Numbered from the stretch's first letter, positions 2,046 to 46,978 are shown. The stretch: 64,000 nt of DNA from Octopus vulgaris (GCA_951406725.2 OX597816.1:147808001-147872000), one strand, 5' to 3'. A program made the numbers and translations. The notes: generated from the sequence alone by a model not told the origin.

Positions 2046-2112
2046 AGTCCTATATCACCTGTGATTTCGCACTTACCGCATAAAAAATGCGTCTATGTTC
2101 ATCGGTAGAACT
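2046..2112 (-). ncRNA. Second (antisense) copy of the same HHR motif, with G10.1 changed to A
   Basis: Reverse complement reads agttctaCCGATGAacatagacgcattttttatgcggtaagtgcGAAAtcacaggtgatataggact. Confidence 0.6.
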
Positions 2113-2367
2113 GATTCTGAATACATCATAAATAAACGACCAACACTACCTGATAATTTCTTGTTAAGATTCCTTATTAAGAAGTTATCCTTAATTGTTA
2201 AATTTTTTCCGAAAAATCTTTTCCTACCCGAAATGCAGTTCGAATAAGCCCGCCATTTACCGAATATATGATTTATAAACATCTCCATGTGCTTGGCCGG
2301 AGAGAGCAGTTTCCTGTTCGACTTCGCCAGGTAGTGTTGGTCGTTTATTTATGATGTGTTCAGAATC

Positions 2368-2434
2368 AGTTCTACCGATGAGCATAGACGCATTTTTTAT
2401 GCGGTAAGTGCGAAATCACAGGTGATATAGGACT
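2368..2434 (+). ncRNA. Type I hammerhead ribozyme motif, core CCGAUGA (U4C variant)
   Basis: Stem I AGTTCTA/TAGGACT; core CCGATGA at 2375-2381; stem II GCAT/GTGC extended by CGCAT-TTTTT-ATGCG; GAAA at 2412-2415; stem III ATCAC-AG-GTGAT; predicted AUA cleavage after 2427. Confidence 0.75.
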
Positions 2435-3073
2435 AAATTCATTTTTTAAATGTCTTGCTTTGAAAAACTGCATTGGGTATGATTAGTGAAATTTTGGTAG
2501 TAATGACTTATGTCCCTCTTAGTGTGAGGCATTTATGTGTAATAATGCCCTCTATATATATATATATATATATAGATAGATACGTACAGGCGTGTTCACA
2601 CCTACATATCATAGTATGTGTAACACTGGCATTAAGTTTCTCTCACGCATAATATCTGTGTATATACACACTCACAAACACACACTGGTGTGCATGTATG
2701 TAAGCTGGAAACTAATAAAATCTCGGCGTATATATTATGCAGTATTCGATACGGCATTCCGTCTCACTATACATTAACCCTGATATTCAATGAACTCCCT
2801 TGGTGCACGGAATTCAGGCACATATCACTGATTGAGTAAATTGGTGTGCAGGCGTGGTTATGGATACGAAAATTGTTTCCCATCTACAAGCTTATGGGTT
2901 CAATGCTACCACATGACAACTTGTGAGAGTATTTTTAGCTATAGCCACTATATAAACTTAGATAAAATAAGACTTAGATATGCTTCGGCCAAAGATGGGT
3001 CCAGGCCATGTCTAACTTAATAGCCCCACCTGATAGGATTATCTAAATCCTTTTTAAGTCAAGTTGTGTGGTA

Positions 3074-3620
3074 TTATAGTCCATTCAAGTAGTGAGTTCT
3101 TGTCGGGTGAGTTGTATCCAGGTATGAGTGGCTTATGTGGTATTCTTTGAAGTAATTTGTCCAGATTCCGTTTAAAGGTGATGGTATATTTTTCCTCTTT
3201 GATCGGTTTTGGGACAGAAATTTTGTCGCAGTGTACCTATATGTTGTGATCCTGAGTTGGGCAGGGGACGTATGGCCCGTGGTCACAGTCTTGGATGAAC
3301 CTTGAAGCTAATGTTCAGGTCGTTTAGGCAATGAGGGTAGTATATTCTTCCCATCGTTCCAATGATGTACCGCTCGCAGCGGCGCTGGAGAGATTAGAGT
3401 AGCATGGCTTTAAGGCGGTCCCAGTAATCGAGATCTGTCATGCCCTTAATTCGTTTAGTAAGTGCTCTCTGTGTTGATTCAATTTTTGAATGGGGAGATC
3501 ACAGAGAGCAGCAGTATTTGAGGTGTGGCAGTATAAAGGAAGAGAAAAGTGGAATAACACTTGTTCTCTGGACCGGAAGGTTCTTAAGATCCAGGAGCTC
3601 ATCCTACGAGCTACATCAAC
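3074..3620 (-). mobile_element. Degenerate 3' fragments of a CR1/L2-type LINE
   Basis: Minus-strand translation gives QRALTKRIKGMTDLDYWDRLKAM..SLQRRCERYII, typical of the LINE RT C-terminus, and ARRMSSWILRTFRSR. Confidence 0.65.
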
Positions 3621-43499: not shown

Positions 43500-44280
43500 C
43501 TGTTAGGGGAAGAGGGCGGAGCAGATGAGTAAGGAGACTAGAAGAATAAGAAGAGTAGGAAGAGAAGGAGTAAGGAGTCAAGAAAATGAGTAAGGAGTGA
43601 AGAAGAATAGGAAGTGAAGGAGCAAGAGAAGGATGTGGAGGAGGAGGAGGAGGAGGAGGAGGGGAGGGGGGAGAAAACGAAGAGCAAGGGGTTATGGAAG
43701 AGGAAGGGAATGGAAAAAGAAGGTGCAGGAAGAAAAGCAAGCAGCAGCAGTAGTGGTAGCAGCAGTAGTAGTAGTAGTAGTAGTAGTAGTAGTAGTAGTA
43801 GTAGTAGTAGTAGTAGTAGTAGTAGTAGTAGAAAAAGAAGAAGAAGAAAAAGAACACGAAGGGGAAGGAGATTTGGAGGATGAAGAGGACAAGATAGAGA
43901 AGGAGAAGGGATGAGAAATAAGAGAAACAAGCAGCAACAGCAGCAGCAGTATTAGAAGAAAAAGGAGAAGAAGAAGAAGATAAACAACAACAATAACAAG
44001 TGGAAGAAGACGTAGAAAAAGAAGAAGAAGAAGAAGAAGAAGAGAAGAAGAAGAAGAAGAAGAAGAAGAACAACAACAACAACAACAACAACAAGAAAAA
44101 GAAGAAGAAGAAGAAGAAGAAGAAGAAGAAGAAGAACAAGAACAAGAACAAGAACAAGAACAAGAAGAAGAAGAAGAAGAAGAAGAAGAAGAAGAAGAAG
44201 AAGAAGAAGAAGAAGAAGAAGAAGAAGAAGAAGAAGAAGAAGAAGAAGAAGAAGAAGAAGAAGAAGAAGAAGAAGAACAT
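43500..44280. repeat. Compound purine-rich microsatellite (GAG/TAG/GAA/CAA)n
   Basis: Direct inspection. Confidence 0.95.
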
Positions 44281-46852
44281 TATGAACAAAAGAAACGATG
44301 AGATGTTGGAAACAGAAATAGGAAGGGCATGGGAAAACGACTCGAATCAGGAACATGTGGAGAGTTTTCGCAGAATTCATCTTCATCCGGAGGGTACTGC
44401 TGATTAATGTTATATTCTCTATGTATATACACGTATTTGTATGAGCTTACTTGCGTATGAATACGCCATGTATGTATGTCTGTTTGTATGTATATACGTA
44501 CGCACGTATATATATATATATATAAGCATGCATGTAGGTATGTATGCACGAGTGCGTGCATGTACATATGGATAACAAGCACTGAAAGGCAACTCCCTCG
44601 TTAACTGTAATATTACCAACAATATGTGCAAAAAGTGCAGCATCCAATGTAGATCTGTTCCGTTGTGGTCAGATATCTATCTATCTATATTCAGTCATTT
44701 ACATTTCAATGGTTGTTATAAAGATGAAGGAGTAAGAGAACACTACTATTATAATAATTCGGAATAAACTCATGACCTTAGTATGCAATCTGATCTCAAC
44801 TTCGTAAGTATGTGACCTCTTATTACCTCAGGGTGAAAATTTCAGCATTTCAGCAAACTTATTAGTGAGGTTCCGTGCTACAATGTAGATTACTTAGATG
44901 TATATATGTATCTATTTTCTTATGGAGGATTATATCCCTCTCCCCCCTCTCTATCTCTCTGTATGTCACCTACTCTATCTCGTTATAATACATATATATA
45001 TATATATATATATATCAGTGAATTTGTAAATGTATGTGCATACATATGTGTGTGTGAATGAATGTTATGCTATAAATATCACTATGTGCATGTTTCATAC
45101 CTATAAATTACACACACACACATACACACACACACATACACACACACATACACAAATAACATACACACAACAGTGTAAGTGGACTCGGCTGTATGTATCC
45201 TTATGTGTGTACCTATATCATTTGTGTGTGTACATATCTATACAAATTCATTCAGATAGATACAATTCTCTGCGTTCTCTCGTTTTACACACACATTTAC
45301 TTTCTTCCATTTTCTCTTCCCTTTCTTTCTTTCTTTAATACATTTTCAGACGTTCTGTTCTCTTCACGATGTCCTTTTCTTCTATCTGCTACAGCGCTTG
45401 AATATATGTGTATGCACACAACTAGTTACACAGATACATATATACACATACATAAACACAAACATACTACACAAGTATGTCTGTACGTGTCTCTATGCAT
45501 ATGAGGTCAAGATGAAAAAATTTAATATATCAGCTAATATAGTTCACTCTAAAACTCTCATTCCTTCCCCCCCTCTCTCTCTGTATATGTATATATATAT
45601 ATATATATGTGTGTGTGTGTGTGTGTGTGTGTGTGTGTGTGTATTGTTCAAATTTATAGAAAAACCAAAACACGAAGAGAAGTGAGTGAAGAACAAGGAA
45701 GTGTATTAATTTGACGCTCGGGAAAGTGAAAAAGTCTTTTACATTTCAGTATATATATATATATATATATATATATATGTGTGTGTGTGTGTGTGTGTGT
45801 GTGTGTGTGTGTGTATGTGTGTGTGTGTTTCTATATACACACACGTATATATATATACATGATATATATATATATATGTTCGTGTGTGTGTGTAGATATA
45901 TATCTATACTATAATGGAGAAAGCCGCTTAATAATTAGGTATGTAACAATTACTAAGAATAGTAAAAGAAAGGAATTATTAAAGGGTTGACTGTCTGGAA
46001 GCATTTTTATAAATTCCTGTTCTAAGAAATTTCTTATAATTTCGATTTCTCAAGTTTATTGAATTTTTTGCTCCAATTTCTCGCAAATCTGAATATTCAT
46101 CGCATTCTCTATATCCAATTCTTCGCGAATTTAAATATTCATTGCATTCACTGCGGGGCATTCAATTTTCATTTGAAAAGTCTCTCACTTTGTCTTTTAA
46201 TATTTTCAAGTTTGGAAAACCGACAGTTCATTCTATTAATGCATAGGTAATGTAAAAACATTATTTATCAGATGAAAACGTTTTAAAATACGTATAATTT
46301 TTGTTAAACAATTTTTAAGTGATTTTGTTGTTATGGCTGCTTGGAACGCTATAAGCCTTACAATAATAACTATCCAGACCGATTTTGACCATTTTCCTTT
46401 TTAACATAAAATCCATGGGATGAAAGTTTTCGGTAACAAAAAAAAAACAAAACAACTCAATCGTTTTTGCTGTTGTTTTTAGCACAATCCAAATAACCCT
46501 CCTCTTTCATTCTCACTTGTATTGATGTTTTTTCAACACGTTTCTCCCATTAAACACATTTTGTGAAATGTTGATGCCGAAGTAAAACACGCGTGGTTCA
46601 TTGGTAGAAGAAAAACAAAATAAATTGTAATCTAAATTTTTACCCCCATCTGAATAAAGCGAAACCGTATGTATATGTGCAAGAAAAGCCATTTTCTAAC
46701 CGAAAAGTATGCTATTAAAATGAATTATAGCTTACGTAACTCTTTGTTTGTTTGTTTTTTAAATCAACGACAATTGCAGCGTGGAAGATATATGTAAGCC
46801 ATTCAATAACGCACAAAAAGTTAGTTTCACTTCAACATTTAAATTTCATTTG

Positions 46853-46899
46853 TGTCAAAATATTTTCGTCGCTTTGAAACCGCGACATGTTCACTGACA
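46853..46899 (-). ncRNA. Antisense copy of the GUGAACA hammerhead motif
   Basis: Reverse complement reads TGTCA GTGAACA T GTCGC ggtttcaaa GCGAC GAAA ATAT TT TGACA. Confidence 0.65.
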
Positions 46900-46931
46900 A
46901 AAATTCGTGCTACATAACTTTTGTGAAGTTT

Positions 46932-46978
46932 TGTCAGTGAACACGTCGCGGTTTCATAGCGACGAAAATATTTTGACA
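46932..46978 (+). ncRNA. Minimal type I hammerhead motif with core GUGAACA (C3G/G8C swap)
   Basis: TGTCA GTGAACA C GTCGC ggtttcata GCGAC GAAA ATAT TT TGACA, with 5-bp stem I, 5-bp stem II and palindromic AATATT stem III. Confidence 0.65.

Follow-up and report, generated by a model that had tools for sequence, protein, structure and literature searches.

Variant type I hammerheads in a 64-kb window of the Octopus vulgaris genome, probably spread by Penelope-like retroelements

The window analyzed in this study is a stretch of 64,000 nucleotides from Octopus vulgaris (GCA_951406725.2, OX597816.1:147808001-147872000; here G000:C3:147808001-147872000), part of a 2.8-Gb, microsatellite-rich assembly, and simple repeats occupy about 8.7 kb of it. 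An initial annotation listed nine well-formed and four decayed hammerhead ribozyme folds in this window and ascribed them to a radiation of non-autonomous, retrozyme-like derivatives of Penelope-like retroelements (PLEs) with apparently unrelated flanks. With one exception, the sites were found to belong to seven repeat families (A, B1, B2, C, D, E, and F) whose motifs are type I hammerheads, and we suggest that they lie at the 3' ends of PLEs, whose proteins combine a reverse transcriptase (RT) with a GIY-YIG endonuclease (EN). The features of the window that carry these motifs are as follows (ORF, open reading frame; UTR, untranslated region; LINE, long interspersed element).

1794-2552: family A insertion, a head-to-head inverted pair in (TA)n (minus copy 2152-1794, plus copy 2145-2552) of an ORF-less unit of ~480-500 nt
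2368-2434, plus strand: intact family A hammerhead with a 7-bp stem I, core CCGAUGA at 2375-2381, no extra base, and a 5-bp hairpin stem III
2046-2112, minus strand: family A hammerhead damaged by G10.1>A
5449-6240, minus strand: B1 copy of the 5537 lineage; hammerhead 5537-5570 with core CUGUCGA (A6U) and a 3-bp stem I
6770-7158, plus strand: B1 copy with an approximate 5' boundary; hammerhead 7041-7080 with a broken stem I and a private U4C
10975-11480, both orientations: family E inverted pair of an ORF-less unit of ~520 nt, with a decayed hammerhead at 11164-11230 on the plus strand (G12>A)
11589-12826, minus strand: inverted, 5'-truncated family F copy in two pieces (12826-12710 and 11661-11589), with a U3-A8 core at 12736-12730 and a LINE RT insertion at ~11662-12709
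12830-14330, plus strand: decayed Neptune-like PLE 3' end, with a GIY-YIG-type ORF remnant (12866-13490), a long 3' UTR, and a decayed F hammerhead (14204-14250)
13533-13570, plus strand: chance look-alike in that 3' UTR, not a hammerhead; its homologues have no core or stems
25076-25285, minus strand: short B2 element of ~215 bp, flanked by (TA)n and starting at a 5' end that recurs among copies; its hammerhead (25167-25203) has core CCGACGA and lacks the innermost stem I pair
26932-27115, plus strand: family C copy starting within a tRNA-like head; CUGAUGA hammerhead 27024-27068 with two stem breaks, on a Poseidon-like PLE tail
40091-40306, plus strand: B1 copy with an intact hammerhead (40169-40206), core CUGUUGA (A6U) at 40174-40180
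45903-47548, plus strand: putative non-autonomous Helitron-like carrier, ~2.4 kb elsewhere; its homology ends at 47548 here
46770-47121, both orientations: family D inverted pair (inverted arms) inside the Helitron-like carrier
46932-46978, plus strand: intact G3-C8 hammerhead of family D, core GUGAACA at 46937-46943, with 5-bp stems I and II and a palindromic stem III
46853-46899, minus strand: intact G3-C8 hammerhead of the inverted D arm, a descriptor match

Cleavage is predicted 3' of A2427 (A), U40201 (B1), and U46973 (D).

The motifs were searched for with a relaxed type I descriptor (Watson-Crick pair 3-8, G10.1, stem II of at least 4 bp, self-complementary stem III, UH). With positions 3, 4, 6, and 8 relaxed, as the initial annotation had proposed, it gives six matches in the window, against a mean of 0.09 and a maximum of one in 100 block dinucleotide shuffles, none of which reaches six. 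Five of the nine sites listed as well-formed pass it, namely 2368+, 40169+, 46932+, 46853-, and 5537- with its 3-bp stem I; the sixth match, 16137+, was absent from the initial list. The other four sites deviate from their family majorities by copy-specific changes: G10.1>A in 2046- (A), two lost stem I pairs and a private U4C in 7043+ (B1), an innermost stem I pair turned into U-U in 25169- (B2), and one lost pair in each of stems I and II in 27023+ (C). Self-BLAST reduces the nine sites to five families: A (2046/2368), B1 (5537, 7043, 40169), B2 (25169), C (27023), and D (46853/46932). Thus the nine are not independent well-formed folds, nor are their flanks unrelated: 2046/2368 are the inverted arms of one insertion, 99% alike, 46853/46932 are the inverted arms of another, and the three B1 copies are mutually 72-79% alike.

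The listed core strings are all present where the initial annotation placed them, and its point that a canonical CUGANGA search would miss the core variants held true: a narrower early descriptor, whose stem III limit was too short for family A, found no canonical-core match in the window, and the variants are fixed per family. Rfam gave no hammerhead model among 150 of 182 window matches, none within 2300-2500, and nothing at the gathering score in five loci. Most single-strand minimum free energy (MFE) folds do not stand out (z between -2.7 and +0.5), which is the expectation for minimal hammerheads.

The identity of the motifs follows from the families to which they belong. Covariation was analyzed in eight family majorities, the seven of the window and an active element from outside it; stem I is unforced by the search patterns, and stem II is partly forced and so was not counted. 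Stem I arms pair at 31/32 positions within their own family and at 91/224 when arms of different families are mixed (1/20,000 permutations), which confirms at the family level the stem covariation on which the initial proposal depended. For instance, the same stem position is C-G in B1 and G-C in B2. Positions G5, A9, G12-A14, and A15.1-U16.1 are constant in all family majorities, and pair 3-8 is always Watson-Crick: C-G in A, B1, B2, C, and E, U-A in F and the active element, and G-C in D. A set of 47 B1 copies was aligned with stem II and GAAA as the only anchors. Positions 3, 4, 5, 8, and 9 are invariant in 45-47 of these copies and U6 is found in 43, whereas any of the four bases can occupy position 7 (16/15/12/4); at position 17, A, U, and C occur, but G in none of the 47. 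This variability at 7 and 17 is the hammerhead's own degeneracy pattern.

The type I layout (open stem I, G12-A13-A14, A15.1-U16.1, H17) was found in the majorities of all seven families, and the position of the motif relative to the PLE 3' end is alike in every one. The canonical core C3-U4-G5-A6-N7-G8-A9 is present in C, E, and most of A; it is absent from D (G3-C8), F (U3-A8), B1 (U6), and half of B2 (C4). The three traits of the minimal hammerhead, that is, an extra base after A9, G10.1-C11.1, and a short palindromic stem III, occur together in B1, B2, C, and D. Thus the extra base and palindromic stem III noted initially hold for seven of the nine sites but not for family A, which has no extra base and a 5-bp hairpin stem III (fully palindromic in another A subfamily). 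Families E and F have a palindromic stem III without a clear extra base. We conclude that at the family level the motifs are real type I hammerheads. Among the four sites described as decayed, 11169 belongs to family E and 14204+ and 12708- to family F. Site 13533 was rejected, as core and stems are both missing from the majority sequence of 20 aligned homologues. Site 11169 was also considered as a look-alike in a miniature inverted-repeat transposable element, and this was discarded on its membership in the real family E (CUGAYGA in 11/14 copies).

Copy numbers were obtained as genome-wide exact-pattern counts, with reversed-pattern controls of 0 unless noted. Stem II of family B followed by GAAACGU has 37,366 matches; with U6 the B pattern has 22,064 and with A6 15,969. 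The D pattern with G3-C8 has 5,461 matches, and when positions 3 and 8 are left free, 95 of the first 100 of 5,096 matches are G3-C8 and none is C3-G8. The stem III of family A has 942 matches, against three in the reversed control. U3-A8 is found in 16/19 copies of family F, and family E has, besides its CUGAYGA core, an 8-nt palindromic stem III and a U-U that opens stem II. U4C is merely polymorphic (9/19 B2 copies, 22/34 copies of the window's A subfamily, and 1/16 in a wider A sample), and CCGUCGA at 7043 is a private decay. All 38 examined D copies have U17, which would avoid a G3-C17 mispair (our suggestion, drawing on PMC3884650). Relatives of the D protein carry hammerheads with U3-A8 (L479) and C3-G8 (L481) in two of eight metagenome loci, most of these loci being short. 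Activity of the G3-C8 core of D is plausible, given that the two changes, engineered together, partly restore the function of a PLE hammerhead (C3G/G8C in PMC11167929) and of other hammerheads; A6U is the most doubtful variant for catalysis. Overall, the core variants are fixed per family and are predicted to cut slowly.

Four groups of copies, namely C, D, F, and one B1 lineage, derive from coding PLEs, as their linkage to ORFs shows: a parent with an RT, a C-terminal GIY-YIG domain, and a hammerhead near its 3' end was found for C, D, and F, and in weaker form for B1-5537. The labels Poseidon-like and Neptune-like used here are provisional and follow the presence or absence of a CX2-5CxxC linker motif (PMC8557442). 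A whole or partial C hammerhead lies 60-260 nt downstream of a GIY-YIG-type ORF in 26/30 loci, the query included, and the C parent has an RT and no linker zinc motif, hence Poseidon-like. The parent of family D, which we take to be Nematis-like, is an RT-EN element with a frame of ~1000 aa interrupted by one stop in L472; its protein has no Pfam match, and RT and EN were assigned from motifs and homologues. The D endonuclease ORF is found upstream in 21/30 loci, the hammerhead downstream in 25/30, and both in 18/30. As the D endonuclease matches are mostly 90-100% identical, family D is young.

For family F, a Neptune-like ORF lies upstream in 4/29 loci, collinear with window 12875-14329, and the hammerhead lies downstream in 6/19 other loci found by its 3' UTR. 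Window 12830-14330 is a single decayed Neptune-like 3' end, with an inverted partner (12826-11589) that is split by a LINE. The B1-5537 lineage is the 3' end of an element longer than 2 kb, with Neptune-like ORF remnants upstream in 5/29 loci, in shared alignments of 1.9-2.1 kb. The insertions show 5' truncation, inverted or partial tandem arrangements, an optional tail, and microsatellite targets; in all families, inversions have variable junctions, flanks are (TA)n or AT-rich, and two 3' ends are often seen. Such features are hallmarks of PLE insertion (PMC8557442, PMC11167929), and, together with the RT/GIY-YIG parents, they uphold the PLE origin proposed initially.

Several other PLEs were encountered. 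A very young Neptune-like element (L171:3348-5699, minus strand; also L172 and L174) has an intact 784-aa RT-GIY-YIG frame and an upstream ORF of 350-450 aa. It forms tandem and inverted copies, its U3-A8 hammerhead is identical in 32/36 copies, and all 150 of 150 scored matches are identical over 154 aa, with 19,894 candidates genome-wide; this is the active element of the covariation set. A second young Neptune-like family (L353-L381) has copies ~98% identical and open frames of 713 aa in 5/30 loci. In 12/30 loci of an older Neptune-like family (L207-L236), the ORF is followed at a distance of ~150-200 nt by an unusual motif resembling a hammerhead, whose stem II has 2 bp and whose core may contain one extra base. 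Descent of B2, or of the 40169 lineage, from this family was considered and is not supported: B2 copies in its vicinity begin, behind (TA)n, at a 5' end of their own, and the family has its separate hammerhead-like motif. A GIY-YIG fragment of a distinct PLE-like family adjoins a D copy (L044:1760-2251, plus strand). Finally, L004 and L223 each contain one canonical CUGANGA hammerhead with a long palindromic or hairpin stem III, from families absent from the window.

In family C, a tRNA-like segment followed by (AAT)n is situated between the ORF and the hammerhead in 26/30 long copies. Among 29 copies picked by their tail, 18 start at this head, two reach the ORF, two start inside the head (the window copy included), and seven have no head (L073 was reclassified by hand). 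All seven heads met in other loci lead into the C tail, two of the seven being one place seen twice. ARAGORN calls no tRNA in the C head at its default, and makes tRNA-like calls in several copies at a lowered threshold. Short family C resembles a PLE-borne short interspersed element (SINE), a reading that rests on 29 + 6 copies; it may also be that RT stalling at the structured head produces the short copies.

The inverted D pair of the window has a fixed junction inside an element of ~2.4 kb that starts with 5' TC and ends with a GC-rich hairpin and CTAG. The 5' start is common to eight other loci, and the hairpin with CTAG followed by T is found in three of seven extended loci. Non-autonomous Helitrons have a 5' TC and a 3' hairpin with CTRR, and lack terminal repeats and target duplication; we read the carrier as such an element. 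Helitron-like flanks occur in 19/28 loci found with the window D copy, and in none of 20 pattern-picked or 29 body-picked D loci. The two D copies, therefore, appear to have been duplicated passively within a Helitron-like element, which the initial annotation missed. Having spread as DNA cargo, they would not be independent evidence of ribozyme function.

Another group of units contains no ORF. The family A unit is 481-500 nt long, circularly permuted, has 32% GC, and its longest ATG-initiated ORF is 49 aa. It repeats at 481-484 nt in 5/19 loci and at 455 nt in one more, and eight same-strand dimers 485-500 nt apart were found among the first 100 matches listed. Contigs of four runs presumed to be RNA span the A unit with its hammerhead, mostly at 85-95% identity; they are uninformative on ends, strand, and circles and are not used as evidence. 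The E unit is likewise ORF-less and circularly permuted, and repeats at 520 nt; copies of the ~215-bp element B2 repeatedly begin at the same 5' end. At L314:43-2138 (G000:C18, ~44.95 Mb), nine tandem 232-nt units each carry a family F U3-A8 hammerhead, and this array appears to be a retrozyme-type multimer derived from a PLE 3' end. In family B, no two same-strand copies lie within 450 nt among the first 100 matches listed. Retrozyme-type organization was thus found in family A and the F array, and not in B, C, D, or any window site. As the window pairs are on opposite strands and the B matches listed have no same-strand neighbours within that distance, dimers in cis are possible only in A dimers, the F array, and tandem full-length elements; the dimer cleavage invoked initially does not apply in cis within the window. 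Further 3' tails of B1, A, and E that end before the hammerhead are present at 8171-8269, 28289-28406, 45646-45747, 51273-51518, and 56239-56452 of the window.

We interpret the sites, with a probability of about 0.8, as type I hammerhead copies at the 3' ends of seven PLE families, probably spread by PLE RT/GIY-YIG proteins and now mostly dead end-pieces. The source element would be transcribed, as in known PLE biology, and priming by its RT, at nicked AT-rich or (TA)n DNA, would begin ~90-300 nt beyond the hammerhead. Where synthesis stops early or a strand is inverted, ends of 200-1000 bp would remain, which retain the motif and decay later. Only the source elements would be under selection, which would explain why compensatory changes preserve the stems and pair 3-8 in families (C-G, U-A, G-C), whereas individual copies are broken. 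Families A and E would borrow a PLE enzyme in a retrozyme-like manner; a PLE partner for them was not found among the candidate parents examined. The role of the ribozyme in source RNAs would be to process tandem or read-through transcripts, either as dimers formed through the palindromic stem III or with the help of a PLE protein. The anatomy, covariation, ORF linkage, tandem units, and carrier were observed here; target-primed insertion that starts downstream of the hammerhead, and a slow cleavage aided by dimerization or by a protein, are taken from the literature.

A number of observations weigh against this interpretation. Four of the nine sites listed as well-formed are broken, and the genome searches score only the best 40 candidates, so that the samples lean to close relatives. 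The B1 ORF remnants are weak (E from 1e-4 to 3e-8), and no coding parent was found among the loci examined for A, E, B2, and the 7043 and 40169 lineages. Two candidate parents were rejected: the Neptune-like ORF of L201, which is followed by a D hammerhead in only 2/30 loci, and the ORF of L405, which is followed by an A hammerhead in 1/30, the query itself. A6U alters a conserved core base, and a natural A6C variant is slow (PMC3088659). Cleavage of the family hammerheads, along with the RNA ends and circles it implies, is a prediction from sequence. PLE hammerheads cut poorly in vitro (PMC4209133), and for the anole PLE cleavage is dispensable for insertion in vitro and no RNA-seq ends are reported at the cut site (PMC11167929).

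In a possible, though less favored, alternative, the variant motifs (A6U in B1, U4C in B2 and A, and perhaps G3-C8 in D) are dead or nearly so and persist because the PLE protein recognizes the fold for binding or priming, or as hitch-hikers. It gains from reports that A6 changes reduce activity (PMC3088659), that hammerhead mutants left PLE insertion in vitro unaffected (PMC11167929), and that Naiads thrive without canonical hammerheads, whose parasitism on PLEs those authors suggest (PMC8557442), as well as from the excess of the A6U form over the A6 form in B1. However, the G3-C8 swap takes two changes that restore a tertiary pair of the cleavage-ready fold, three 3-8 states occur within one protein clade, and the B1 subfamilies vary only at positions 7 and 17 with G17 excluded, as selection for cleavage predicts. 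Less probable still is the initial proposal that all carriers form a non-autonomous, retrozyme-like radiation through ribozyme-made circular RNAs and dimer cleavage, which we regard as unlikely. Retrozymes have been described as PLE derivatives (10.64898/2026.07.22.740005), and the ORF-less head-to-tail dimers of A, the permuted E unit, the nine-copy F array, and the short B2 with its recurrent 5' end all agree with it. For B, C, and D, however, it is already contradicted by ORF linkage or the lack of tandems, and both window pairs, being inverted, would yield no transcript with two ribozymes in cis. The non-autonomous reading fits A, E, and probably B2. It does not fit C, D, F, and B1-5537, which their linkage to RT/EN ORFs marks as 5'-truncated ends of coding PLEs. 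A last alternative, that the motifs are chance look-alikes in AT-rich repeats amplified by repeat abundance, is very improbable. It is true of 13533, and the weak MFE z-scores and the silence of the Rfam models would suit it, but it is refuted at the family level by the shuffles, the pattern of variable positions in B1, and the cross-family covariation; the constant place of the motif relative to the PLE 3' end also speaks against it.

In addition to the hammerhead carriers, the window contains LINE-type RT ORFs unrelated to them at 32857-35054 (plus strand; RVT_1, E 6e-31, with zf-RVT) and 11632-12631 (plus strand; RVT_1, E 2e-12). An inverted 380-bp repeat (14333-14712 and 16197-16578) flanks a 2-kb low-complexity, coding-like stretch with a lone descriptor match, 16137+; the ORF at 15881-16330 (minus strand) may resemble a retroelement RT but has no Pfam, homologue, or Atlas match. 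Fold-back repeats of other short interspersed repeats lie at 50935-51132, 28411-28480, 28515-28689, and 41209-41909.

PLE minimal hammerheads, U3-A8, and retrozymes are already known. The metazoan PLE hammerheads (Cervera and de la Pena 2014, PMC4209133) share with the octopus families a short stem I, the extra base after A9, G10.1-C11.1, a palindromic stem III, mostly single truncated copies with some opposite-strand pairs, many families per genome, and U3-A8 (here in F and the active Neptune-like element). The consensus published for them comprises CUGANGA and U3-A8; here, by contrast, D has G3-C8, B1 has U6, B2 and an A subfamily have C4, and in E a U-U opens stem II; the one supplement file of that paper that was searched holds no octopus entry. 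Non-long-terminal-repeat retrozymes (PMC7229834; Li, Clavereau and Pollet 2026, 10.64898/2026.07.22.740005) resemble family A as ORF-less, AT-rich units with a type I hammerhead, occurring as monomers and head-to-tail dimers, and resemble the F nonamer array. They are described as 170-400 nt long, whereas the A unit, known here from DNA alone, is longer (~480-500 nt) and has PLE-type inversions and (TA)n targeting; unlike retrozymes, C, D, F, and B1-5537 are ends of coding elements. In the PAc Poseidon of Anolis (Frangieh et al. 2024, PMC11167929) the hammerhead is similarly located upstream of two RT start sites with an optional tail, and the octopus family D likewise ends at ~+125 or +190; G3-C8 was engineered there as a rescue mutant with partial activity, and here it occurs naturally in a young family. 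Among the core variants reported from nature by Perreault et al. (2011, PMC3088659) are U3-A8, A6C, and U10.1-U11.1; these are rare, and the text section of that paper names neither G3-C8 nor A6U, whereas the octopus variants are fixed in thousands of copies. Finally, the Schistosoma hammerhead SINEs Sm-alpha and Sj-alpha (reviewed in PMC6765202) have an RNA polymerase III (Pol III)-type head followed by the hammerhead, like the short C copies; unlike them, C has its head and tail in a coding Poseidon-like PLE as well, within the 3' UTR (26/30 loci), and this element is a likely partner for mobilization.

The general picture of many PLE families with minimal hammerheads, and of retrozymes arising from PLE ends, has thus been published. 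What appears to be new is the family-fixed G3-C8 and A6U at very high copy number, the SINE-like C form, and the Helitron-like capture. In the literature searched, with most subscription papers and Repbase outside its scope, we found no description of a natural G3-C8 fixed in a young coding PLE (>5,000 copies), of A6U in >22,000 copies, of a tRNA-headed short family C form, or of these octopus PLE families and a Helitron-captured hammerhead; the published G3-C8 hammerheads found there were engineered ones. Lunse et al. (2017) reportedly list ~150,000 PLE-associated variant hammerheads, which may already include G3-C8 or A6U. Tens of thousands of motifs are overlooked by CUGANGA descriptors and Rfam. 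For the question whether PLE hammerheads need to cut, this one genome supplies natural alleles together with the cognate proteins: each of the three 3-8 states is represented by young families, a huge lineage has A6U, and the active element, with its intact 784-aa ORF and U3-A8, is the best substrate. We tentatively consider that G3-C8 may work in a recently active coding PLE (>5,000 copies), that A6U may work in >22,000 copies, and that family C may be a Pol III-driven SINE born in, and mobilized by, a PLE. If so, the core of the hammerhead would be able to evolve within PLEs, where assistance from proteins would loosen its constraints.

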